Source of the DNA: Patescibacteria group bacterium
Lineage (GTDB): Bacteria > Patescibacteriota > Microgenomatia > UBA1400 > Chisholmbacteraceae
DNA length: 64,000 nt
Direction: 5' to 3'
Assembly: GCA_022564195.1 (NCBI GenBank)
Contig: JADFLW010000003.1
Span: 12,747-76,746, forward strand
The notes under the pieces are model-generated. The model saw only the letters and a list, made by a program, of their open reading frames with translations. It searched no databases and had not been told where the DNA came from. This document shows positions 8,570-56,854 of this stretch, in pieces (the first letter of the stretch is position 1; each line of letters opens with the position of its first letter). The position numbers and the translations under genes are program-made.

Positions 8570-10014
8570 ATACAGAAATTGTCCAAAATAAAAAAGAGTA
8601 TTTCTTAATCTCAATAATATTGGTTTTTGCCGTAATAACAAGACTTTATAGAATAAATTCCCCGCTCGCTGACTGGCACTCATGGAGGCAAGCCGATACT
8701 TCAGCGGTAACAAGAAGATTCGTAAATGAAGGCATAGACGTACTTCATCCACGCTATGACGATCTCTCAAATATCCCTTCTGGTAGGGACAATCCGAATG
8801 GATGGCGATTTGTCGAGTTTCCGTTTGTCAATGCCGGGACAGCTGTGCTGTACAAAGCACTTCCGGTAATTTCTCTCGAAGTTTGGGGCAGACTGCACTC
8901 AATTATGTTCTCGCTTGGGGCCGTCGTGCTGATCTTTCTTATTGTCAGAGACTTGGTAAGCGCACGCATTGGCTTGTTTGCAAGCGCGGTGTTTGCCCTT
9001 TTACCCTTTAACATCTACTTCCACCGGACAATCTTACCGGAAGTACCAATGGTGTTCTTTTCGCTTGCAGCTGTGTACTTTTTTCATCGTTGGTTGGAAA
9101 CCAAAAAATCCCGTGATTTCGCCCTTTCTGTCGCAGCTTCTGCCTTAGGGGTGCTGCTCAAACCATACGTGCTGTTTTTAGGATTGCCGATGCTGTATCT
9201 CACATACAGAAAGTGGGGAAGAGCAGCAGCAAAACAAAAATCGCTCTATCTTTACCTAGTACTTACGTTGATGCCTTTTGTGCTTTGGCGTCTTTGGGCA
9301 GCAAGATTCCCGGAAGGAATTCCCGCCTATACATGGCTGTTGAATGGAACGGGGATACGATTCAGACCCGCTTTTTTTCGCTGGATTTTTGCCGAACGAT
9401 TCGGAAAGCTCATTTTAGGATACTGGGGGCTGATTCCTTTCGGCATCGGTCTCATTCGCAAGCCTCGAGAAAAATGGGGCTGGTTTTTCCATTGGTGGCT
9501 GGTCGCAATGCTCCTCTATCTCGTGGTCTTTGCAACGGGCAACGTCACCCACGATTACTACCAAATCTTCATCACCCCGATCATCGCAATCTTCGTCGCC
9601 CTCGGCATAGACGGTTTACTCAGGATGCCCCGGAAAGTGTTCAGCCGTGGGCTCACGCTTGCACTGCTCCTCGTTTCTCTGGGATTCGGGCTCGGATTCT
9701 CATGGTTTCACATCCGTGATTTTTTTAACATCAATCACCCAGAAATTGTTTCCGCAGGCGAAGCAGCCAATAAAATACTTCCCGAGAACGCAATAGTGAT
9801 AGCACCCTATCAAGGAGATACCGCATTCTTATACCAGATCAATAGACCTGGCTGGCCAATCGGAGGTGATATAAAAAGGAAAATTGAGCTCGGGGCAACC
9901 GACTACGTCACCGTGAATTTCGACGAAGAGGCGAATTTTCTTTTGGAGCGTTGTAAGCCTGCACTACAACTCGAGCAGTTTGCCATCGTAAGTCTTCTAC
10001 ACTGCTCGCTATGA
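8566..10014 (+). CDS. Polytopic membrane glycosyltransferase, GT-C fold (ArnT/PMT family)
   Basis: ATG 8566 overlaps the upstream stop (ATGA). N-terminal RLYRINSPLADWHSWRQADTSAVTRRF and at least 9 TM spans. Confidence 0.65.
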   Translation: MNTEIVQNKKEYFLISIILVFAVITRLYRINSPLADWHSWRQADTSAVTRRFVNEGIDVLHPRYDDLSNIPSGRDNPNGWRFVEFPFVNAGTAVLYKALPVISLEVWGRLHSIMFSLGAVVLIFLIVRDLVSARIGLFASAVFALLPFNIYFHRTILPEVPMVFFSLAAVYFFHRWLETKKSRDFALSVAASALGVLLKPYVLFLGLPMLYLTYRKWGRAAAKQKSLYLYLVLTLMPFVLWRLWAARFPEGIPAYTWLLNGTGIRFRPAFFRWIFAERFGKLILGYWGLIPFGIGLIRKPREKWGWFFHWWLVAMLLYLVVFATGNVTHDYYQIFITPIIAIFVALGIDGLLRMPRKVFSRGLTLALLLVSLGFGLGFSWFHIRDFFNINHPEIVSAGEAANKILPENAIVIAPYQGDTAFLYQINRPGWPIGGDIKRKIELGATDYVTVNFDEEANFLLERCKPALQLEQFAIVSLLHCSL

Positions 10015-31157: not shown

Positions 31158-32474
31158 ATGGAAAAATTCATCATCCAGGGAGGAAGAGAACTTCACGGCT
31201 CCGTCCGGCTCGGAGGCGCGAAAAACTCAAGCTTCAAGCTCATGATCGCGTCTCTATTGGCTCAAGGAGAAACGCGTCTTTTAAACATCCCACTCATCAA
31301 TGATGTGGAGATCACCCGGCAGATAATCGATCACTTGGGAGGCCGAGTCCGCAGCGCCGGAGAACGGTTGCTTTGCGTTGATGGTACAAATCTCACAACG
31401 AATGAAGTTCCTCAACGCTTCGGAAAACACTCTCGTGCCTCGACGATGTTCATCGCCCCCTTGCTTAGTAGATTCAAGAAGGCGGTTGTCCCATTGCCAG
31501 GAGGAGATAAAATCGGCGCTCGTCCCTTAGACAGGCATTTCGCCGTATTTAAAGCGCTTGGTGCAACCGTCACACAACGAGGCAACGTGGTTGTCGTTTC
31601 CGCAGACCGATTGACTGGTTCACACTACAAATTTGAAAAGAATAGCCATACTGGAACTGAAACGGCGATCATGGCCGCGGTACTGGCTGTGGGCAAAACG
31701 ATCCTGGAAAACGCGGCAGCAGAACCTGAGGTCGACGACCTTATCACTTTTCTCACGAGCATGGGTGCCAAGATTCAAAGGAAGCCCGGTCGCAGAATAG
31801 AGATCATCGGAGTGAAGAAACTTATCCCGACAATCCACCGCATCATGCCGGATCGAAATGAGGCGGTATCCTTCGCCTGCGCGGCGGTTGCAACAGGTGG
31901 AGACATCATTGTGGAAAACGCAAGAGAAGAACATCTCAAAGCGTTTCTCCATAAGCTTGAAGAAGTGGGGGGCGGGTATGAAGTAGGAAGTTTCGGCATT
32001 CGATTTTACCATCAAGGAGCCTTTAGATCGGTTGATGTGGTTACGAAACCGTATCCCGGATTCATGACTGACTGGCAACCGCTCTGGGCCGTGCTGATGA
32101 CGCAAGCCAAGGGCACCGCGATCATCCATGAAACGGTTCACAACAACCGATTCCAGTATGTTCGAGATTTAAGAAAGATGGGTGCCAAGATTTCGCTTTT
32201 CAATCCAAAAGTTACAAATCCAAGAAGGTTCTATAATTTCAATCTTCAAGACGATCGTCCGGAGTATCGCCACGCTGCCAAAATTCAGGGCCCGACGCCA
32301 CTGAAGGGAAGAGAGCTTAAAGTTCATGATCTCCGCGCCGGGGCAACCTTGGTTTTGGCAGCCCTGATTGCCAAAGGGCAAAGCACCATAACTGGAGTGG
32401 ACCATATTGACAGAGGCTACGAAAATCTCGATGGCCGACTGATTGACTTAGGTGCTAGTATAAAGAGGTTGTAA
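31158..32474 (+). CDS. murA: UDP-N-acetylglucosamine 1-carboxyvinyltransferase
   Basis: FIIQGGRELHGSVRLGGAKNSSFKLMIASLLA and EPSP-synthase-fold length (438 aa). Confidence 0.9.
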   Translation: MEKFIIQGGRELHGSVRLGGAKNSSFKLMIASLLAQGETRLLNIPLINDVEITRQIIDHLGGRVRSAGERLLCVDGTNLTTNEVPQRFGKHSRASTMFIAPLLSRFKKAVVPLPGGDKIGARPLDRHFAVFKALGATVTQRGNVVVVSADRLTGSHYKFEKNSHTGTETAIMAAVLAVGKTILENAAAEPEVDDLITFLTSMGAKIQRKPGRRIEIIGVKKLIPTIHRIMPDRNEAVSFACAAVATGGDIIVENAREEHLKAFLHKLEEVGGGYEVGSFGIRFYHQGAFRSVDVVTKPYPGFMTDWQPLWAVLMTQAKGTAIIHETVHNNRFQYVRDLRKMGAKISLFNPKVTNPRRFYNFNLQDDRPEYRHAAKIQGPTPLKGRELKVHDLRAGATLVLAALIAKGQSTITGVDHIDRGYENLDGRLIDLGASIKRL

Positions 32475-32525
32475 TAAAGGGGAAGGGAGGTGGTTGGGAA
32501 GCAAAAATAGCAAAGAAGCGTGTGG

Positions 32526-32720
32526 TCCCGATAGCGCTGGCGCTTATCGGGAATACGAGGAAGGGGGATCCCCCGACATCACGTCGGGGGGATCGGACTC
32601 CCGGTGTAAAATACCGGGGAGAATCTGCGGAGACCCCCTGGTTGTTCGGCCAACCACAACGGACGGATCAAAACCTCGCAGTAATGTGGGAGACAGAGTC
32701 CAACCGAAGCCGAAAGGGTT
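32526..32720 (+). ncRNA. Candidate glmS-ribozyme-like structured 5' leader
   Basis: Lies in the 349-nt gap directly upstream of glmS. GC-rich nested helices include tcccgat 32526-32532 / atcggga 32546-52. Strings AGCGC (32533), ACGAGGA (32555) and CGGACUCCCGG (32594) recall the glmS ribozyme core. P1 would be nearly absent, so the call is uncertain. Confidence 0.4.
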
Positions 32721-32823
32721 TTCTTCATCCCTAATAATTTCCTGATTATTGAACATCAATAAGGAGGAGTGTTTTGTGTGGTGAAACTAGTGTATTTTCA
32801 CCCTAAACCTAAACGCTAATGAT

Positions 32824-34605
32824 ATGTGTGGAATTTTCGGATACGTAGGTCACCAAGAAGACGCAGCCGACATCGTCTTTGAGGGCTTAAAAAGATTGGA
32901 ATACCGCGGATACGACTCTTGGGGAATTGCGGTCAAAAAGCCAGGAACGGGCAGCAAAAATACCTTTGCGATCAGGAAAAGAACGGGAAAGATCGGAAAC
33001 GCCAAGGTCAGTGACCTCCCCAAAAGCAGCTTTGGTTTAGGACACACGAGGTGGGCAACCCATGGTGGGGTAACCAAAATTAATGCCCACCCACATACCG
33101 ACTGCACAGGTTCCATTGTCTTGATCCACAACGGCATAATCGAGAATTACGAAAAGTTGAAAAAGAACCTTATAGCCCACGGCCACCGTTTTGTGTCCGA
33201 AACAGATAGCGAAGTTGCGGTCCATTTGATTGAAGAGCTCAACAAAACCTGCTCATTCACAGAGGCAGTTCGCAAAGCTTTTCTTAAGTTGGAGGGCTTA
33301 AACGCCATAATCGTCATGCATCCGCGAGCGCACACATTTGTTGGGGTCCGGAACGGATCGCCACTTGTCGTTGGTTTGGGAAAGGGAGGAAACTACCTTG
33401 CCTCAGATGCTGCCGCTCTCCTGCCTCACACCAAGAAGGTGTACTTTTTAGAAGATAACGATTTGGTGGTAGCAGACGCAGAGAATGTCCAAATCATCGA
33501 GGTGAAAACGGGGAAGAGAAAGAAGATCAAGCCGCGTACGCTTACCTGGAGCATAAAGCAAGCTGAAAAAGGGAAGTACCCCCATTTCATGATCAAAGAA
33601 ATTCATGAACAGCCGTCCATACTCTCTGAGATTGCTTCGAGTGGTCTCTCTAATGCCAAAAAGCTCAGCAAACATATCGATCAGGCCTTCGACACCTACA
33701 TGGTGGGCTGCGGAACCGCTTCATATGCCTGTATTGCAGGTTCCTACCTTTTTTCCAAAATCGCCAATCGTCATATCAACTGGGCTGTTGGAAGCGAATT
33801 CGGATATCAGCTAGACTTTTTAACCCCAAAAAGCCTGGTTATGGCACTCTCTCAATCTGGCGAAACAATAGATACACTTGAAGCGGTGAAGAAAGCGAAA
33901 GGGAAAGGCGCAAAGATTTTTGCACTTGTCAATACACTTGGGTCGTCTCTGTATCGTGAAGCCGACTATTCAATGCTCATTGGTGCAGGACCAGAGAAAG
34001 CCGTCGCCTCCACAAAAGCCTTCACTGGAAAGCTTGCCCATCTGGTGCTTCTTGCATACGCTCTGGCCGGCAAACCAAAGAGTGGTCAATCGACACTCTT
34101 GAAAGCCGCAAAGGCAAGCAAGACAGTCCTCACTCCTGAATCTAGGGCGAGGATAAAAAAACTCGCGGAGAGGATGAAAAACAAAGAGCACATCTATGTT
34201 ATTGGAAGAGGCTTATCGTACCCCGCGTCGCTAGAAACCGCATTAAAAATCAAAGAGATCTCCTACATCCATGCCGAAGGATTCGCGGCTGGAGAATTGA
34301 AGCACGGCGTGATCGCGCTTGTCGAGAAAGGTACCCCTTGCATTGCCTTTTTACCTAACGATGAAACGTATGGTGCCAATCTCGCTGGCGCGATGGAAAT
34401 GAAGGCCCGTGGCGGCTCCATCATCGGGATTTCCCACAAGCCGCACGAGGTCTTTGATTTCTATATTCCAGTGGCAGATGCTCAAGAAGCCACGATCATT
34501 CCCAATGTCATCGTCGGTCAAGTCTTAGCCTATTATCTCGCGATCGCGCGCGACCTCGACCCCGACATGCCCCGCAACCTCGCTAAATCCGTAACGGTGA
34601 AGTAA
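32824..34605 (+). CDS. glmS: Glutamine--fructose-6-phosphate aminotransferase
   Basis: MCGIFGYVG N-terminal nucleophile, two SIS domains, C-terminal AKSVTVK. Confidence 0.95.
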   Translation: MCGIFGYVGHQEDAADIVFEGLKRLEYRGYDSWGIAVKKPGTGSKNTFAIRKRTGKIGNAKVSDLPKSSFGLGHTRWATHGGVTKINAHPHTDCTGSIVLIHNGIIENYEKLKKNLIAHGHRFVSETDSEVAVHLIEELNKTCSFTEAVRKAFLKLEGLNAIIVMHPRAHTFVGVRNGSPLVVGLGKGGNYLASDAAALLPHTKKVYFLEDNDLVVADAENVQIIEVKTGKRKKIKPRTLTWSIKQAEKGKYPHFMIKEIHEQPSILSEIASSGLSNAKKLSKHIDQAFDTYMVGCGTASYACIAGSYLFSKIANRHINWAVGSEFGYQLDFLTPKSLVMALSQSGETIDTLEAVKKAKGKGAKIFALVNTLGSSLYREADYSMLIGAGPEKAVASTKAFTGKLAHLVLLAYALAGKPKSGQSTLLKAAKASKTVLTPESRARIKKLAERMKNKEHIYVIGRGLSYPASLETALKIKEISYIHAEGFAAGELKHGVIALVEKGTPCIAFLPNDETYGANLAGAMEMKARGGSIIGISHKPHEVFDFYIPVADAQEATIIPNVIVGQVLAYYLAIARDLDPDMPRNLAKSVTVK

Positions 34606-36147: not shown

Positions 36148-36939
36148 ATGCGACAAGATGCCATAGGCGTCTTTGACTCTGGGGTGGGCGGACTCTCGAT
36201 TTGGCGCGAAATTCGGCGTTTGCTTCCACGGGAGAACACGGTCTATGTCGCAGATCAAAAACACCTTCCGTATGGGGAAAAAAGCGATGAAGAAATAAGA
36301 GGCAGGTCCGAAAAAATCACCAAGTACTTGTTAGATCAAGGATGCTCGCTCATCGTCGTCGCCTGCAACAGTGCCACCGTCTCAGCACTCGCTCAGCTCC
36401 GTCGTCAGTTTTCCATTCCCTTCGTCGGCGTCGAGCCGGCAGTCAAACCGGCTGCCCGAAAAAGCAAGACAGGAGAAATAACGATTCTTGCAACAACCAA
36501 GACCGCAACAAGCAAAAGACAACGGAGTTTGTTAGAGCAGCATGCGAACTCAGTAAAAGTCAATCTTCTTGCGGCACCAGAGTTCGTTGAGCTTGTGGAG
36601 AAAGGGGAGATCGACACTCCTCGCGCATCACGCAGAATCGCTGCCTTTTTGCGATCACACAACCTGGGGAAAAGCGACGTTTTTGTTCTCGGGTGCACCC
36701 ACTACATCTTTTTAAAAGACACGATAAGAAACGCTTTACCGGACCATGTCACGATCATCGAGCCGTCAAGGGCGATAGCCAAGAGAGTCGAGTCGATAAG
36801 AAAAAATCAAGTGAGAAAAACGCAACAAAAGCCGGGAAAGCAGAGGTTCATGACCACCGCAAATGTGGTTCGCTTCACAAACGTTGCCCAAAAGCTTATC
36901 GGAGGCGCAATAGAATCAGCAGGGAAGCTCGAGGTATGA
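36148..36939 (+). CDS. murI: Glutamate racemase
   Basis: IGVFDSGVGGLS, VVACNSAT, VLGCTHY. Confidence 0.9.
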   Translation: MRQDAIGVFDSGVGGLSIWREIRRLLPRENTVYVADQKHLPYGEKSDEEIRGRSEKITKYLLDQGCSLIVVACNSATVSALAQLRRQFSIPFVGVEPAVKPAARKSKTGEITILATTKTATSKRQRSLLEQHANSVKVNLLAAPEFVELVEKGEIDTPRASRRIAAFLRSHNLGKSDVFVLGCTHYIFLKDTIRNALPDHVTIIEPSRAIAKRVESIRKNQVRKTQQKPGKQRFMTTANVVRFTNVAQKLIGGAIESAGKLEV

Positions 36940-51496: not shown

Positions 51497-51572
51497 GGGC
51501 TCATAGCTCAATCGGCAGAGTGCTTCGTTCACATCGAAGAGGTTCCAGGTTCGAGTCCTGGTGAGCCCACCA
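51497..51572 (+). tRNA. tRNA-Val (anticodon CAC), CCA encoded
   Basis: 76-nt cloverleaf by eye. Acceptor GGGCUCA/UGAGCCC, D-stem GCUC/GAGU, anticodon stem CUUCG/CGAAG with loop UUCACAU, T-arm CCAGG-UUCGAGU-CCUGG, discriminator A, then CCA. Confidence 0.9.
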
Positions 51573-52199: not shown

Positions 52200-53639
52200 T
52201 CAGCTCTCCGCAACAGCTGCTGGGCGAGCAGGAGCCGGACGTCCGAGCCCGAGCTCCTCGGCGTAGTAGGTGATCGGTTTATCCCTCGTCTCCCTGATGA
52301 GGTCCTTTTGGGCGAACACCCACCGATTGGTAGCCTCATTGCCATTCCAGTAGACAGCTTTCACCCGCTTGATTTCGTCATACTGATCACTGGTGGTAAG
52401 GTTTTTAAGCTTCCGGCACTTCGACCTACCCACATTGATCTTCGGATGGTCAGCTAAAGGGTTGTCGGTGAACAACCACAAGAGAGTCGAGAGCGAAAGC
52501 ATCTTCTCCCGAGCAAAGTAGGCTTCGGTGGTCTGCTCCCCTCCTTGCTCATAGAGAACGTCGACGATGAGTGTCAGGCTTCGTTCCTTGCCGTCTCCGT
52601 TCGGCCGCGAGTCCCTGTACTGGCCTTTGATCGCCAGAAGCTCTGTGCCAAAGGCGATTGATTGGACGGAAATGGCTCCCGGAATCCAAGGCTGGCCTTC
52701 GGTTTTGAAGTCGCCTTCCGTTCTGAAGACCGGGCTGCGGGAATGGCCCTGGACGACCTTCGTCCCCGAGGTCTTGATCGCGATCACGCGTTTCCCGGAA
52801 GCCGTCAGCCGCCGAGCGCGCTTGATGAAAAACTCTCCCATCTGCACCCAGGCGAACATCGGGGTGACCCCTTCTGGCGCAGCATAGAGCTCCACTCGAG
52901 GATCTTCCAGATGGCCCATGAACAGCATATCATCGCTGAGGTCCGTGTAGTCCTCTTCCCGCTCTCCGGCGATGCAGGCCATGAGATGAAAGTCTGAGTA
53001 CTGATCCTCCTCCATCATCAACATCGCTGCCCTAAAAATCGCCCGTAGATTCATGGTCTTGCCAACTCCACCTGGACCGGCAATCCATAGACCGTGGCCT
53101 TCGCCGAGCGGCCATCCGCCACGGAAAATGATCCCGAGGACAGGTTCGTACTCTTCGTCCCAGGAAACCCGGCGATCGAAGTAGTCGAGTGGAAGAGGTT
53201 TGTTGGGATAGCGGCCGAAGATCTTGTTCTGATCCTCCTCGTCCGGCTTCGCAACCAAAGTGGGCCAATTTCGGACCACCGCAGCGTCCGTTTCCCCGTT
53301 GACGGAAATGATCTGAGTGATAGGGTCCGGAGGAACCTCTTCCTCGTTGTCGGATCTGCTGCTCGATCTGTCAGGCGGCTCCCGATAGAGGATAAGATCC
53401 CCTTCCCGTAATCCCCACAGCTCCACAGTAGGGGAAGGAATGAATCGGCCCCTTGCAAGGGACTCAGCAAAAATCTCACTCCTGGGGAATTTCGCCAACT
53501 TCTTGGCGTTTGGCGGGATGACCACCGTATCTGGAGTTCCCCATTTGCCGTATACAGGTCTCTGGCTCTGAGGGAGCTCCGAGAGGGGTCGTTGTAGTAC
53601 CAACCCACGCTTCGGTTTATCATCTTGTGTACTCAACAC
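52200..53639 (-). CDS. Divergent Rho-family ATPase homologue (Rho-like OB region + RecA-fold ATPase)
   Basis: By-eye collinearity with E. coli Rho:
- LREGDLILYREPP...IISVNGE vs LRTGDTISGKIRPP...KVNEVN;
- GLWIAGPGGVGKTMNL vs GLIVAPPKAGKTMLL;
- ACIAGEREEDYTDL vs LLIDERPEEVTEM;
- FIKRARRLTASGKRVIAI vs VIEKAKRLVEHKKDVIIL;
- SLTLIVDVL vs SLTIIATAL.
GTG 53639 (SD GGAAAGGAG 8 nt upstream) preferred to ATG 53699. Confidence 0.6.
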   Translation of the reverse strand: MLSTQDDKPKRGLVLQRPLSELPQSQRPVYGKWGTPDTVVIPPNAKKLAKFPRSEIFAESLARGRFIPSPTVELWGLREGDLILYREPPDRSSSRSDNEEEVPPDPITQIISVNGETDAAVVRNWPTLVAKPDEEDQNKIFGRYPNKPLPLDYFDRRVSWDEEYEPVLGIIFRGGWPLGEGHGLWIAGPGGVGKTMNLRAIFRAAMLMMEEDQYSDFHLMACIAGEREEDYTDLSDDMLFMGHLEDPRVELYAAPEGVTPMFAWVQMGEFFIKRARRLTASGKRVIAIKTSGTKVVQGHSRSPVFRTEGDFKTEGQPWIPGAISVQSIAFGTELLAIKGQYRDSRPNGDGKERSLTLIVDVLYEQGGEQTTEAYFAREKMLSLSTLLWLFTDNPLADHPKINVGRSKCRKLKNLTTSDQYDEIKRVKAVYWNGNEATNRWVFAQKDLIRETRDKPITYYAEELGLGRPAPARPAAVAES

Positions 53640-53647
53640 AAGTCTTT

Positions 53648-53679
53648 CTCCTTTCCTAGTGGGCCTCAGGCCCAACCGG
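53648..53679 (-). promoter_or_regulatory. Leader hairpin + SD motif (copy 1, before the Rho-like gene)
   Basis: RNA sense: CGGUU-GGGCC-UGA-GGCCC-ACUA-GGAAAGGAG-8 nt-GUG. Confidence 0.6.
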
Positions 53680-53720
53680 TCAGTCCGTTTTCCAGTCATT
53701 GCTGGATTGGGAACAGGCTA

Positions 53721-53750
53721 CCCTCTAGTAGTGGGCCTCTGGTCCAAAAG
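53721..53750 (-). promoter_or_regulatory. Leader hairpin motif (extra upstream copy, imperfect)
   Basis: RNA sense: UUGGACC-AGA-GGCCC-ACUACUAGAGGG, with one mismatch in the stem. Confidence 0.45.
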
Positions 53751-53996
53751 GAAATCTCTAGAGAGCATTCCGTTCCCAATCCGTACGCGTTCTTATTTGG
53801 TTGTCAAGGAGCTAATGCGAAGCATAAGCTCCGCACCCGCCAATATTTTTCGAGGGAGTATACGGCTGACTAAGCAGTAAGCCGACCATCGATAAAATAT
53901 GGTGGGAAAGTGCTATCCCGCTCAAGCGGGATCCAAATGCCCGCCCCAACAAACGCCAAATGTCTGTTTGCAGGCGTCTTATAAATTGTCAATTTT

Positions 53997-54063
53997 CCTC
54001 TGTTTCGCCCTCCGTAGCTTTAGCGTAGGGGGCTCATCAGTCAGCCTTTGGCTGAAACAGAAA
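53997..54063 (-). ncRNA. Hammerhead ribozyme motif, type III (HHR-C)
   Basis: RNA sense: UUUCUGU-U|UCAGCC-AAA-GGCUGA-CUGAUGA-GCCCCCUACGCUAAAGCUACGGAGGGC-GAAA-CAGAGG. Full catalytic core. Stems I and II are closed and stem III is open. Confidence 0.8.
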
Positions 54064-54225
54064 ACAACACAACAAAATCAAACTACAACCCCCTTCACAC
54101 AAACAAACAAACAAACAATTCATCAACCCCGCAAATGGGATTGAGATGTCTGCCGAATTTCGGTGAAGAGAGGGTGAGGGAGGGATCCCAAACTTCGGGA
54201 TCCCATTCCCATGTCAACGTCCCTC

Positions 54226-54576
54226 TTAGGACCGCCACGGTCTTCGGCCTATCCATTCGGCTGTTGGGAGGTCATTCCCGCGCCATCGTCCGTTGGATCG
54301 CAATGGATCCTCATTGACGACCTGACGTAAAAGCCCAATGGAAAGGGCGATCGCGCCGATGATGCCAACGAAAACGGCCAGGAAGCTCGAAACCAAACGC
54401 GAGAGTAGTGGAATGGACTCCACCAAATCTCGCTGAGCCGACGTTAACTCGCCGCCCGACGGAAAGCCAAATGCCGCAAACACATGAAGCGCGAATATGC
54501 CTCCCAGGAAAGGTAGGAGCAAATGAGGCCGATGAAAAGTGCTAAATGGACTCGGAAGTACCAGTCCGAAAACCAT
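54226..54576 (-). CDS. Small two-TM membrane protein (gene model uncertain)
   Basis: 116 aa. SD-like GAGGAG lies 9 nt before the ATG. Two hydrophobic spans (LLLPFLGGIFALHVFAAFGF, VSSFLAVFVGIIGAIALSIGLL). Overlaps the alternative model 54444-54677 in another frame. Confidence 0.4.
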   Translation of the reverse strand: MVFGLVLPSPFSTFHRPHLLLPFLGGIFALHVFAAFGFPSGGELTSAQRDLVESIPLLSRLVSSFLAVFVGIIGAIALSIGLLRQVVNEDPLRSNGRWRGNDLPTAEWIGRRPWRS

Positions 54577-54677
54577 TTCGGTACGCTCCTCTCATTCGGC
54601 TCTTTCCTCTTAGCTCCCAAAGGAGCACGTCCGCGATTCTTGCCGTTTCCCGCGATCCAACCCCTCAAAGTGATCAA
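54444..54677 (-). CDS. Alternative small one-TM ORF starting at UUG after a leader hairpin (gene model uncertain)
   Basis: The leader motif GGUUUGGCC-AGA-GGCCAA-CUACGAAGGGAGGAAGGAU sits directly before in-frame TTG 54677. 77 aa with one hydrophobic span. Confidence 0.35.
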   Translation of the reverse strand: MITLRGWIAGNGKNRGRAPLGAKRKEPNERSVPKWFSDWYFRVHLALFIGLICSYLSWEAYSRFMCLRHLAFRRAAS

Positions 54678-54679
54678 AT

Positions 54680-54716
54680 CCTTCCTCCCTTCGTAGTTGG
54701 CCTCTGGCCAAACCGG
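54680..54716 (-). promoter_or_regulatory. Leader hairpin + SD motif (copy 2)
   Basis: RNA sense: CGGUU-UGGCC-AGA-GGCCA-ACUACGAAGGGAGGAAGGA. Confidence 0.55.
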
Positions 54717-54914
54717 ATACTGGAACGCTTCATTGGGCGATTGATCCCGAATGAAGGATAAAACGGATAAGTCCGGGAGGAGCAGGTTCGAGAGAACCCA
54801 ACTCCTCTTTTTTTGGCTAGCGCCGATCAGATCAAGAGCAAGAGCAATGCATACCCCAGCCATTTCAACTGAACGTTTTGGAACATGATCGCTCCTTCCA
54901 TCGAATCGTCGTGA

Positions 54915-56537
54915 CTAAGACGACGAATCGTTCTCATCAACCTCTCGGAGTTGAGACGGTCTGGTTCGACCGCCTGACGATTTCCCGCGACGAAGCCGTA
55001 GCGAGACGCGCCCCCGTGACACCGCGGTATCCCCCGACGCCAAAGCGCTATCGTCGACTTCGCGTAGGGTAGAGGATCTCTTCGCCGGCTGCGCAACCTC
55101 CGGTGGTTGAGCCACATCCGTGACCCGATCCACCACAGTCGGCTGCAGTTCACGATACTTCTCTTGCACGTATCGCGCCTCGATGTCGGCGATGTGCCAT
55201 CCCTGACCGAGCAACCGGGCAAACAGCCTGAGCGTAATACCAGAGCGAAGGCAGAACGCGATCGCGTCGTCCCTCTCAAGACCAGCGTCTTCGATGCGCT
55301 TACGCTTGTAGAAGGTATCGCTGTCCCACAGCGCTTCGAGCTCTGCGCGAAATTTCGCGTTGTCTTGCTTGAGCTCGTCAAGCGAGCGGGTGATCACCGG
55401 ACGGCCCGGGAGTTCATCAGAGAACTCCTCCTGAACCTCCGCAATGGTGACCCCAGGCATAGCCAGTTCTTGCCCGATCTCGAAGCCTTCAAAGCTCCAA
55501 TGATCGGGATCCTCGACTGTGGCCTCGTCAATCGTGGAGGGTTCTGCCTTGATCCGAAGCAGGGCGTCGTAATGAACCATCACTGCCTGGAAAGCCTCCT
55601 CCGCCTGCGCATCGGTCGCGCCTCCAGCAAGGGCCTCCACTCCAGCTGCATTCGCTCGACTCTCAGCTGTGCCTCGAAGCTGTAGCATGAACGCTGCGCG
55701 TCGTCGAATCTTGCCCCGAGCATTCATGAAAGCGACGGCATTCTCCCTGTAGAGAGCCAAGTCGTGTGCCCGTGGCCCGGCCCTGGAGGGGAAGCTCAAG
55801 CTCATGACATCCTCTTTCTGGAATCTGCGCTTGTTCCACCACTTCCTGAGTCGACTCGTCTTGATATCATTATCGAGCAGGTCAGGATCGGTGCGGGCCA
55901 ACACGTCTTCGATCATCGTCGTCGGCGTCGCCGAGATATACATATCCTCCCCGGCCTTGAATAGGCTGGGAATGGTGACACCGCCTTTGCGATGTCGCAT
56001 CTCATCAGTGTAGATGAGATACCTGTCTTGGCGTTGCTGCCAGCGAAGGACGTGGTACGTAAGCGTCGGCGTGAGGAACGCAAGCACAGGCCACGCCCAA
56101 AACGCCATCCCCCATTCGGGGGCCGATGGGTCGATCAACTTGAAATCGGGGACGTCTGGCGAAACCGTGATCGCCGCTACAAATGCGCCCAACGCCAAAT
56201 TGATGAACGACACCGTGACAGCCAGGAGAAACGGCCCAAAGATGCTAAAACCGAAGGCGAAGGGAGACCATTTGAGAAACTCCGGCCAAACGTACGCCTT
56301 CTTGCTCATTTCCAGCACCTTTTCAAGCCTAACTCCTGCCTCGAGTTCGCGCGTCCGCTTCTTCTCACTCACGAGGAAGAAAAAGTCGAAGACACGCTGG
56401 ATCACCTTCTCCCCGAAAGGGAAGATCATCAGTGTTGCAGAGAAGATGATCCAGACGCAAACCACGATGATGGCAAGGCCAACATACGCGGCTGCATCCG
56501 ACGGAAGTACCTCTGAAAGGAACTCTTCGAACGTCAC
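54915..56537 (-). CDS. Membrane protein with about 4 N-terminal TM spans and a large soluble C-terminal domain; function unknown
   Basis: 540 aa. GTG start 8 nt after SD GAAGGAG. No nucleotide-binding motif seen. Confidence 0.6.
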   Translation of the reverse strand: MTFEEFLSEVLPSDAAAYVGLAIIVVCVWIIFSATLMIFPFGEKVIQRVFDFFFLVSEKKRTRELEAGVRLEKVLEMSKKAYVWPEFLKWSPFAFGFSIFGPFLLAVTVSFINLALGAFVAAITVSPDVPDFKLIDPSAPEWGMAFWAWPVLAFLTPTLTYHVLRWQQRQDRYLIYTDEMRHRKGGVTIPSLFKAGEDMYISATPTTMIEDVLARTDPDLLDNDIKTSRLRKWWNKRRFQKEDVMSLSFPSRAGPRAHDLALYRENAVAFMNARGKIRRRAAFMLQLRGTAESRANAAGVEALAGGATDAQAEEAFQAVMVHYDALLRIKAEPSTIDEATVEDPDHWSFEGFEIGQELAMPGVTIAEVQEEFSDELPGRPVITRSLDELKQDNAKFRAELEALWDSDTFYKRKRIEDAGLERDDAIAFCLRSGITLRLFARLLGQGWHIADIEARYVQEKYRELQPTVVDRVTDVAQPPEVAQPAKRSSTLREVDDSALASGDTAVSRGRVSLRLRRGKSSGGRTRPSQLREVDENDSSS

Positions 56538-56545
56538 ATCTCACA

Positions 56546-56575
56546 CTCCTTCGTAGTGGGACTCTGTCCCAACCG
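56546..56575 (-). promoter_or_regulatory. Leader hairpin + SD motif (copy 3)
   Basis: RNA sense: CGGUU-GGGAC-AGA-GUCCC-ACUACGAAGGAG-8 nt-GUG. Confidence 0.6.
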
Positions 56576-56782
56576 AATGAACCATACGCGTCGTTGCGCG
56601 TGGGCTCGAAAATGAACCCGACGGAGTCGGGGCCACATTAGAGCCCACTGCCTGACACGCAGGCACTCTCTACGAATGATCAATTCCCATCTTTCCTTTC
56701 TATAATCTTGTTGTGTTGTCAAAGTGCGTATCCCTCGCCCGTATACCACGCTCGCATTGAGCAGGTTTGAGTTTGGAATGTA

Positions 56783-56854
56783 TTCTGTTTCGTCCCTCCA
56801 TAGCTTATTAGCGACGGGGGACTCATCAGGTCCGACGTATATCGGACGACAGAA
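56783..56854 (-). ncRNA. Hammerhead ribozyme motif, type III (HHR-B)
   Basis: RNA sense: UUCUGU-C|GUCCG-AUAUACGU-CGGAC-CUGAUGA-GUCCCCCGUCGCUAAUAAGCUAUGGAGGGAC-GAAA-CAGAA. Classical GUC cleavage triplet. Confidence 0.85.

Follow-up and report, generated by a model that had tools for sequence, protein, structure and literature searches.

A probable glmS ribozyme of a lineage-specific CPR form in the leader of a patescibacterial glmS gene

The RNA encoded at positions 32517 to 32714 of the window (the whole 64,000-nucleotide stretch of Patescibacteria DNA analysed here) is very probably a functional, GlcN6P-dependent, self-cleaving glmS ribozyme that would feedback-repress the glmS gene downstream of it. 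It belongs to a known family, of which it is a lineage-specific, Gottesmanbacteria-like form carried by some CPR bacteria. Our analysis establishes its family membership, its fold and covariation, its conservation in related CPR genomes and the retention of its active-site nucleotides.

The earlier note on this DNA had proposed a glmS ribozyme upstream of glmS and suggested a search with the Rfam model. That search is positive. The RF00234 (glmS) model matches the forward strand at 32506-32716 over its full length (model positions 1-167 of 167) with 55.8 bits, compared to a gathering score of 37 (E 3.6e-10 for the whole window, Rfam 15). Only two matches in the whole window exceed their gathering scores, this one and a tRNA, and within the gap the Rfam scan yields no other RNA family at E <= 1. 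R1, our own covariance model built from ten compact glmS ribozyme matches, gives the window ribozyme 71.0 bits. Copies from Chloroflexota score higher with the Rfam model (74-94 bits versus 55.8). The ribozyme sits in the same-strand 5' leader of glmS and ends about 109 nt before the ATG. Its two neighbours are:

31158 to 32474, + strand: murA (UDP-GlcNAc 1-carboxyvinyltransferase), the upstream gene; TIGR01072, 470 bits
32824 to 34605, + strand: glmS (glutamine--fructose-6-phosphate transaminase); TIGR01135, 624 bits, and NF001484, 656 bits

The gap between them measures 349 nt, as the note had it, with the murA stop codon ending at 32474 and the glmS ATG at 32824. The encoded GlmS protein begins with Met-Cys-Gly-Ile-Phe-Gly. 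That it is the largest gap on the plus strand holds approximately: most other apparent gaps contain plausible ORFs, but 8570-9212 (643 nt) may exceed it. The leader had also been described as GC-rich. G+C is indeed 0.58 in the ribozyme and 0.50 in the whole gap, which is modest against about 0.48 nearby. Both genes are part of a CPR division and cell-wall region that runs in one orientation from glycosyltransferases through ParB. Its order is glycosyltransferases, an FtsI-like PBP, a GlmU-like protein, MurC, MurB, MurA, the ribozyme and GlmS, followed by a DgkA-like protein, MraY, MurI, MurD, MurG, FtsQ/A/Z, IleRS, FtsW and ParB.

All parts of a glmS ribozyme can be assigned within the match. 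They are listed here in order, with a slash in a motif marking the cut:

32506 to 32716, + strand: glmS ribozyme, extent of the Rfam match; the putative functional RNA starts at A32517 and ends near 32714
32517 to 32518, + strand: predicted self-cleavage site A(-1)/G1, aligned to the consensus A/GCGCC
32519 to 32524, + strand: 5' strand of P2.2 (CGUG, bulged U32523, G32524), pairing with 32625-32629
32526 to 32552, + strand: P1 hairpin of 10 bp with one bulged U and a CUGG loop; contains a decoy AGCGC (32533-37)
32554 to 32561, + strand: catalytic core UACGAGGA, in which C32556-G32557-A32558 form the 5' strand of P2.1 and belong to the active site
32563 to 32567, + strand: 5' strand of P2, GGGGG, pairing with CCCCC at 32634-38
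32570 to 32590, + strand: hairpin A, 8 bp with a 5-nt loop, inserted where P2 is joined to the 3' strand of P2.1
32592 to 32597, + strand: conserved AUCGGA, in which U32593-C32594-G32595 form the 3' strand of P2.1 and the cofactor pocket; from the R1 alignment
32598 to 32621, + strand: hairpin B, in the P2.1-P2.2 pseudoknot loop
32622 to 32638, + strand: AAUCUGCGGAGA and the 3' strand of P2; C32625 to G32629 form the 3' strand of P2.2, and CCCCC at 32634-38 closes P2
32639 to 32656, + strand: P3 hairpin of 6 bp with the loop UUCGGC (32645-50); from the model alignment and covariation
32660 to 32706, + strand: P4/P4.1 peripheral domain with a GUAA tetraloop at 32681-84
32709 to 32714, + strand: 3' strand of the P3.1 pseudoknot, GCCGAA, forming six Watson-Crick pairs with the P3 loop (32645-50); read from the sequence

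The predicted cleavage site A32517/G32518 falls within AAGCGUGUGG, and the motif A/GCGUGUGG occupies 32517-25; A/GCGU(G/A)UGG is present in all 13 CPR copies that we have, including the window. Following the pairing scheme of PMC7125110, P2.2 consists of C32519-G32629, G32520-C32628, U32521·G32627, G32522·U32626 and G32524-C32625 with U32523 bulged. Both the bulged nucleotide 6 and the G7-C52 pair of the family scheme are thus present. P2.1 consists of C32556-G32595, G32557-C32594 and A32558-U32593, and G32596 pairs with U32624. In P1, C32527-G32551 is the invariant C-G pair that serves as tetraloop receptor (C-G in 38 of the 38 sequences lettered at both columns), and the GUAA tetraloop is predicted to dock on it. 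The P4/P4.1 domain also carries the A-rich internal loop IL4 (AAAA at 32670-73, ACAGAG at 32693-98). The roles of the L4 tetraloop and of IL4 are described in PMC11602151.

The strong structure claimed earlier is borne out: an unconstrained minimum free energy fold of 32517-32716 reaches -83.8 kcal/mol (z = -2.96) and contains P1, P4/P4.1 and P2 together with its two inserted hairpins. The strings that had drawn attention to the leader are all present where the note placed them (AGCGC, ACGAGGA, CGGACUCCCGG, AAGGAGGAG at 32761-69, GUG-UGG-UGA and GGUGAAA/UUUCACC), and three of them had been read as parts of the ribozyme core. Only ACGAGGA (32555-61) was rightly assigned. AGCGC at 32533-37, taken for the cleavage motif, is part of the P1 stem; the predicted site is 16 nt further upstream. 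In CGGACUCCCGG (32594-604) the CGGA is the 3' strand of P2.1, which continues into hairpin B, and the true CGGAgaCCCCCUGG occupies 32628-41. The P1 that the note put at about 3 bp is in fact the 10-bp helix listed above. The RNA is indeed a variant, for reasons other than the one given. P1 is intact; the RNA stands apart through two hairpins added to the P2 domain and through substitutions, found across the clade, where P1 meets P2.2.

The helices and both core pseudoknots are supported by covariation over 39 ribozymes. We tested the full structure on a model-based alignment of these 39 sequences; the P2.1 and P2.2 pseudoknots are absent from the search model. Paired cells make up 87.8%, versus 66.1 +/- 0.7% after shuffling and 32-48% if the 3' partners are displaced by 1-3 columns. 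Covariation scores 0.58, versus 0.19 (shuffled) and 0.07-0.20 (displaced). Changes on both sides occur in 26 of the 28 pairs of P1, P3, P4 and P4.1. By helix, P1 is 96.9% paired (both-side changes in 6 of 7 pairs), P3 91.8% (5 of 6), P4 84.9% and P4.1 88.1% (15 of 15 together). Across the 39 sequences the P2.1 pseudoknot is 96.6% paired, with two of its three pairs invariant, and the P2.2 pseudoknot 93-95%. P2 reaches only 61% in the alignment because its column register is off by one for most sequences; in the window itself P2 consists of five G-C pairs. Among the CPR relatives the P3 loop and the 3' tail, which form P3.1, co-vary as well.

In the window, the ribozyme region is open in two forward frames, and one could argue that the gap encodes a small protein, either the 83-aa ORF at 32494-32745 or the overlapping 70/71-aa ORFs, with the similarity to an RNA being incidental. 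Conservation of the 83-aa ORF as a protein had been named as one finding that would speak against a ribozyme. We give this idea almost no credence, for the following reasons. First, neither the 83-aa nor the 70/71-aa ORFs match any NCBIfam entry, and the 83-aa ORF has no tblastn match better than E about 1 in 160 related loci. Second, in 11 of the 12 CPR relatives every one of the three forward frames is interrupted by stops within the ribozyme, and indels between copies are not multiples of three. Third, the 83-aa ORF would start at a TTG without a spaced SD. Fourth, the conservation that is seen is already explained by the RNA model. The open frames are by-products of a G+C-rich RNA gene.

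The same kind of ribozyme stands upstream of glmS in related genomes, as an alignment of related glmS leaders, another check that had been suggested, makes clear. With one genome taken per GTDB species, the closest GlmS proteins come from Candidatus Gottesmanbacteria and other Patescibacteria MAGs (62-67% identity), and a metagenome search gave no GlmS closer than 66%; an identical GlmS is not among the proteins on record. A best identity of 67% across genomes and metagenomes makes a leader comparison at fine scale impossible. Of 160 fetched loci, 63 proved to have the ribozyme in front of glmS when searched with the Rfam model and R1, which makes 64 copies with the window; 12 of the 63 loci are CPR and 51 non-CPR. 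These come from two locus sets, with a ribozyme in 39 of 81 sources and in 25 of 60, which were realigned together. The 12 CPR relatives are Gottesmanbacteria-like (L001, L002, L004-L007, L065, L081, L082, L085), Dojkabacteria (L064) and Saccharibacteria (L068). Many of the remaining CPR glmS loci searched (among them L003 and Levy-, Woyke-, Woese- and Peregrinibacteria loci) have no such ribozyme, which is hence dispensable in the group. One of the copies, that of L001, carries a duplicated ACGAGG.

The extra length of the window ribozyme is due to hairpins A and B, which lie in two loops of the P2 domain. Hairpin A has a folding energy of -17.5 kcal/mol (z = -3.75) and hairpin B of -13 kcal/mol (z = -2.99). 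In the Rfam alignment the extra sequence is one insertion of 56 nt in the P2 loop, but the relatives reveal two separate hairpins that flank the conserved AUCGGA at 32592-97. Among the CPR copies the hairpins are optional modules at fixed sites. Both are present in the window, L001, L002, L005, L007, L081, L082 and L085, only A in L006, only B in L064, L065 and L068, and neither in L004. L082, which is among the closest relatives found (66% GlmS identity), thus shares the architecture of the window. From copy to copy the inserts show no relation in sequence or length; all are hairpins of roughly 20-85 nt in loops beside the active site. Some relatives (L006, L065, L081, L085) also have large insertions in P1. 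The P2.1-P2.2 pseudoknot loop, where hairpin B is found, tolerates mutation, with little effect in the Tte core (PMC7125110).

The second distinguishing property is a set of substitutions at the P1/P2.2 junction. Non-CPR ribozymes have 43 positions with a conservation of 90% or more, and the window keeps 33 of these. Most of the ten positions that differ either do so clade-wide, in essentially all CPR copies, or are compensatory, for example U32639-A32656 in P3. In Tte core numbering, the signature is:

Position 4: U in CPR copies, C in non-CPR copies, U in the window
Position 5: G or A in CPR copies, C in non-CPR copies, G in the window
Position 25: A in CPR copies, U or C in non-CPR copies, A in the window
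Position 26: U in CPR copies, G in non-CPR copies, U in the window
Position 50: A in CPR copies, U in non-CPR copies, A in the window
Position 53: U or A in CPR copies, G in non-CPR copies, U in the window

In the map of PMC7125110, a triple joins residue 26 to the 7-52 pair, residue 50 is in contact with residue 8, whose pair 8-25 lies at the base of P1, and P2.2 ends distally in the poorly conserved pair 5-53; loop 47-50 tolerates mutation. These contacts place all clade-specific changes in one three-dimensional neighbourhood, beside the site of hairpin B. The active-site and cofactor-pocket residues named in PMC7125110 are unchanged (A-1, G1, C2, G3, 28-30, 43-45 and 54-56). We therefore infer that the CPR junction is probably co-adapted and not decayed. 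The CPR substitutions had also led us to suspect a 5:26 base pair (Bsu 5:36), an idea that we dropped in view of the 5-53 pair and the triple of 26 with 7-52 in PMC7125110. A metagenomic copy, L133, is intermediate: it has GCGUG and UCUGCGG, yet keeps G26.

It might be objected that the window copy is a decayed relic, recognisable by sequence, but catalytically dead or independent of GlcN6P, so that the leader would be a structured spacer or processing signal. The core substitutions C4U, C5G, G26U, U50A and G53U do fall on positions whose conservation otherwise reaches 90% or more. In P2.2 they leave two wobble pairs (U·G and G·U) where the consensus has C-G, and single 5-53 mutations are strongly deleterious in the Tte core construct, costing at least 200-fold (PMC7125110). 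Activity would hence depend on a putative compensation by context. Two large insertions near the core and the patchy distribution among CPR also fit a relic. Nevertheless, we consider decay improbable. The substitutions are common to all 13 CPR copies even though their GlmS proteins are only 44-67% identical to that of the window, which argues for purifying selection on a working variant. Pairing is kept by compensatory changes, including the window-specific U32639-A32656 and the P3.1 loop and tail, and neither active-site nor pocket nucleotides are altered. The hairpins, in turn, are inserted in loops reported to be mutation-tolerant (PMC7125110). 

How the CPR type compares to better known ribozymes can be stated in some detail. 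With the Firmicutes glmS ribozyme (Bacillus subtilis, B. anthracis and Thermoanaerobacter tengcongensis; RF00234) the window shares the place upstream of glmS, a cleavage motif cut between A and G, the ACGAGG core, P1, P2, the P2.1/P2.2 double pseudoknot, P3/P3.1, and P4/P4.1 with a GNRA tetraloop and an A-rich internal loop. It differs by inserting 21 nt in the joiner from P2 to P2.1 and 24 nt in the P2.1-P2.2 loop. Its cleavage motif is A/GCGUG instead of A/GCGCC, from which the U·G and G·U wobbles of P2.2 result. Its base-triple position has U32554 in place of the consensus G (UACGAGG), its loop residue 50 is A instead of U, and the base of P1 shows a G/A juxtaposition instead of an A-U or G·U pair. 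It also lies between genes of a cell-wall cluster and not behind an obvious promoter. The copies from Chloroflexota and Methylomirabilota (L021-L058, L101-L136), whose GlmS proteins are the nearest non-CPR ones at about 50-53% identity, agree with the window in place and fold. However, they are compact (about 153-166 nt) and GC-rich, lack hairpins A and B and are consensus-like at every junction position (GCGCC, GACGAGG, UCGGCGG). The window thus falls outside the consensus sub-type of Firmicutes and Chloroflexota, since its junction identities differ and its P2-domain loops are not short. These junction positions, though conserved, are not what defines the family. With the other CPR-type copies it shares the signature U4, G/A5, A25, U26, A50 and U/A53 and the two optional insertion sites; it differs from them in that six keep an SD beside the ATG and none has the window's mur genes adjoining glmS.

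The SD deserves closer attention. The earlier note had pointed to an isolated strong SD, and the observation is real: AAGGAGGAG at 32761-69 is 54 nt away from the glmS AUG. In six relatives (L001, L002, L004, L006, L007, L082) an (A)AGGAG stands 3-9 nt before ATGTG(T/C)GG. Three features lie around the SD of the window:

32740 to 32769, + strand: hairpin that pairs most of the SD AAGGAGGAG with 32740-52; inverted repeat I1 with 13-nt arms
32776 to 32784, + strand: two-codon mini-ORF GUG-UGG-UGA, beginning 6 nt past the SD and in the reading frame of glmS
32768 to 32817, + strand: predicted bridging helix (32768-74 with 32811-17) that encloses the GGUGAAA/UUUCACC hairpin (32780-802); a prediction from folding

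The SD hairpin has -10 kcal/mol, z = -2.86 and pair probabilities of 0.75-0.99. For the bridging helix the pair probabilities are 0.6-0.95, and its formation would leave about 6 nt between SD and AUG. The GGUGAAA/UUUCACC hairpin, which had been taken as a hint of additional regulation, is present, but with -6.4 kcal/mol and z = -1.68 it is, by itself, not distinguishable from chance. The glmS start region is predicted to be unpaired and is A/U-rich. TGTGTGG occurs twice, 50 nt apart (32775-81 and 32825-31), which would be consistent with an insertion of about 50 nt between an ancestral SD and the start codon; we offer this as a suggestion only. The segment from SD to ATG has no second copy in the window, allowing up to 3 mismatches, and a repeat search returned only the two hairpins.

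These features could mean that a translational layer acts in addition to a functional ribozyme. The SD would be sequestered in its hairpin, bridged to about 6 nt from the AUG, or both, and glmS translation would depend on the fold of the leader. A split ribosome-binding site of this kind is known from phage T4 gene 38. There, as here, a distant SD could be brought to proper spacing from the start codon by a hairpin; in the window the bridge is a thermodynamic prediction, and the SD itself is largely paired. The displacement of an SD that is found next to the ATG in six relatives, the high pair probabilities of the SD hairpin and the bridge, the z score of the former and the duplicated TGTGTGG, with the insertion that it suggests, all speak for such a layer. 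Yet the whole leader segment 32717-32835 is not significantly structured (z = -1.28), and 184 of 5000 shuffles (3.7%) also produce a bridge of this kind. At a best GlmS identity of 67%, the relatives are too distant for conservation of the bridge to be judged. Moreover, an SD precedes only about one gene in four in the window, so that SD-independent initiation at the unpaired, A/U-rich start is equally plausible. Overall we think a translational layer unlikely, though less so than decay. Control by the ribozyme itself is the reading we prefer.

The RNA adopts the canonical fold, with a doubly pseudoknotted core (P1, P2, P2.1, P2.2) and a P3/P3.1/P4/P4.1 periphery. If it works like its homologues, accumulating GlcN6P would bind the preformed pocket, serve as catalytic cofactor and allow cleavage at A32517/G32518. 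The downstream fragment, left with a 5'-OH, would then be degraded in the 5'-to-3' direction by RNase J, and less GlmS would be made. From the sequence and its relatives we infer the dependence on GlcN6P, the exact position of the cut and the RNase J-mediated decay. The RNase J1 decay model for cleaved glmS mRNA is restated in PMC7125110, and RNase J is reported to be one of the ribonucleases that are preserved in CPR genomes (PMC12641178).

The setting of the ribozyme suggests a further consequence. Only 43 nt separate the murA stop codon from the predicted cleavage site, 9 nt separate glmS from the next gene of the cluster, and a consensus scan, which may not suit CPR promoters, detected neither a sigma-70-like promoter nor an intrinsic terminator in or near the murA-glmS spacer. 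Hence, the ribozyme may be intercistronic, its transcript polycistronic and the cleavage placed between two cistrons of one message. Such cleavage may also uncouple glmS and the downstream dgkA-like, mraY, murI and murD genes from the murC-murB-murA message. In none of the sampled relatives do these mur genes adjoin glmS, which makes the arrangement specific to the lineage of the window. The upstream spacers of the relatives are mostly longer: of 11 that can be measured, nine fall within 103-1277 nt, and the other two have lengths of 2 and 63 nt.

One could go further and see in the CPR copies a distinct, undescribed sub-type, in which one spatial neighbourhood (base of P1, distal end of P2.2, G26 triple and pseudoknot loop) has been remodelled alongside two expansion hairpins. 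In this genome it would be a processing site between cistrons that a metabolite triggers, putting glmS, and possibly the cluster's downstream half for peptidoglycan and division (the dgkA-like gene, mraY, murI, murD and further genes), under GlcN6P control that is independent of murC-murB-murA. We hold this extended proposal to be possible but on the doubtful side, slightly ahead of a translational layer.

What do these results mean for the family? The window carries a textbook riboswitch-ribozyme that a standard Rfam scan can annotate, and so proposing one was mostly a correct call. Our understanding of the glmS ribozyme family is unchanged by the finding. It does document glmS ribozymes in Patescibacteria, namely in Gottesmanbacteria-like genomes, Dojkabacteria and Saccharibacteria; our full-text searches returned no paper mentioning them there. 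The CPR copies are also a natural experiment in what the core tolerates (wobble pairs in P2.2, G-to-U in the base triple, hairpins in the loops), and they can be compared with published deep-mutational maps. Finally, the position of the ribozyme 43 nt behind murA, within a cell-wall cluster, suggests that a polycistronic message may be processed under the control of a metabolite.

The strong Shine-Dalgarno (SD) sequence in the glmS leader lies at window 32761-32769, and the motif TGTGTGG occurs twice downstream of it with a spacing of exactly 50 nt. The first copy (32775-32781) lies 6 nt past the SD and the second (32825-32831) lies within the glmS start (ATGTGTGG); the segment between them has no further copy anywhere in the window. 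Such a precisely spaced pair suggests that an insertion or a duplication displaced the SD from the glmS start.

CPR glmS leaders can hold other elements past the ribozyme. A pyrimidine-rich tract follows the ribozyme's 3' end immediately in most CPR copies, some of which lack an SD. It is of the type CUUCUUU, CCUCU or CUCCUUUC, with 56-78% C+U over 18 nt. This tract could possibly mimic an anti-SD, bind S1 or belong to the 3' boundary of the ribozyme. A second element, a long AT-rich hairpin (AAAGCAC...AAAUUCCAA...GUGCUU), is common to two of the related glmS loci (L-numbers) and missing from the window; the two hairpins look like a homologous extra leader element.

Window 32719-32732: pyrimidine-rich tract, with an equivalent site in L001, L002, L004-L007, L065, L068 and L081
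L002 2346-2500 and L082 1341-1500: AT-rich leader hairpin between ribozyme and SD, both loci from Gottesmanbacteria-like relatives
L133 589-719: compact glmS ribozyme of 131 nt, metagenomic

The signature of the compact ribozyme is intermediate: A followed by GCGUGUGG across the cleavage site and UCUGCGG are CPR-like, yet the consensus G is kept in GACGAGG. Another unusual copy, in L001, carries the core string ACGAGG twice in tandem (2215-2235; GGGACGAGGAUACGAGGA), copy 1 being the 3' strand of hairpin P1, and despite its full architecture it scores 36.8, marginally under the Rfam gathering threshold of 37.

Elsewhere in the window, a 643-nt stretch (8570-9212) flanked by glycosyltransferase/O-antigen-ligase-like genes holds only ORFs of at most 86 aa and matches no Rfam family at gathering score; it may be a non-coding gap exceeding the glmS leader in size. 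The longest murD ORF, whose GTG start is at 36693, shares 247 nt (36693-36939) with murI, and its MurD N-terminal domain begins only at residue 95; the real start is probably near the murI end.

Window 51497-51572: tRNA-Val (CAC)
Window 52200-63956, minus strand: block of ORFs, coming after the tRNA

The block is presumably what the earlier note regarded as the non-host part, and it may be an integrated element. None of its minus-strand ORFs has a Pfam match, and 56944-58407 is the only one with a PHROGs match (phage peptidase, endolysin and tape-measure; E 1e-11), which runs via a C-terminal peptidase-like domain.

Chloroflexota and Methylomirabilota, the nearest non-CPR GlmS relatives, have the glmS ribozyme. 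It is not detectable at a large number of CPR glmS loci, namely L003, L008-L020, L031, L035-L039, L061, L062 and L083-L099, which belong to Levy-, Woyke-, Woese- and Peregrinibacteria and to some of the Gottesmanbacteria-like genomes; its occurrence within CPR is therefore patchy.
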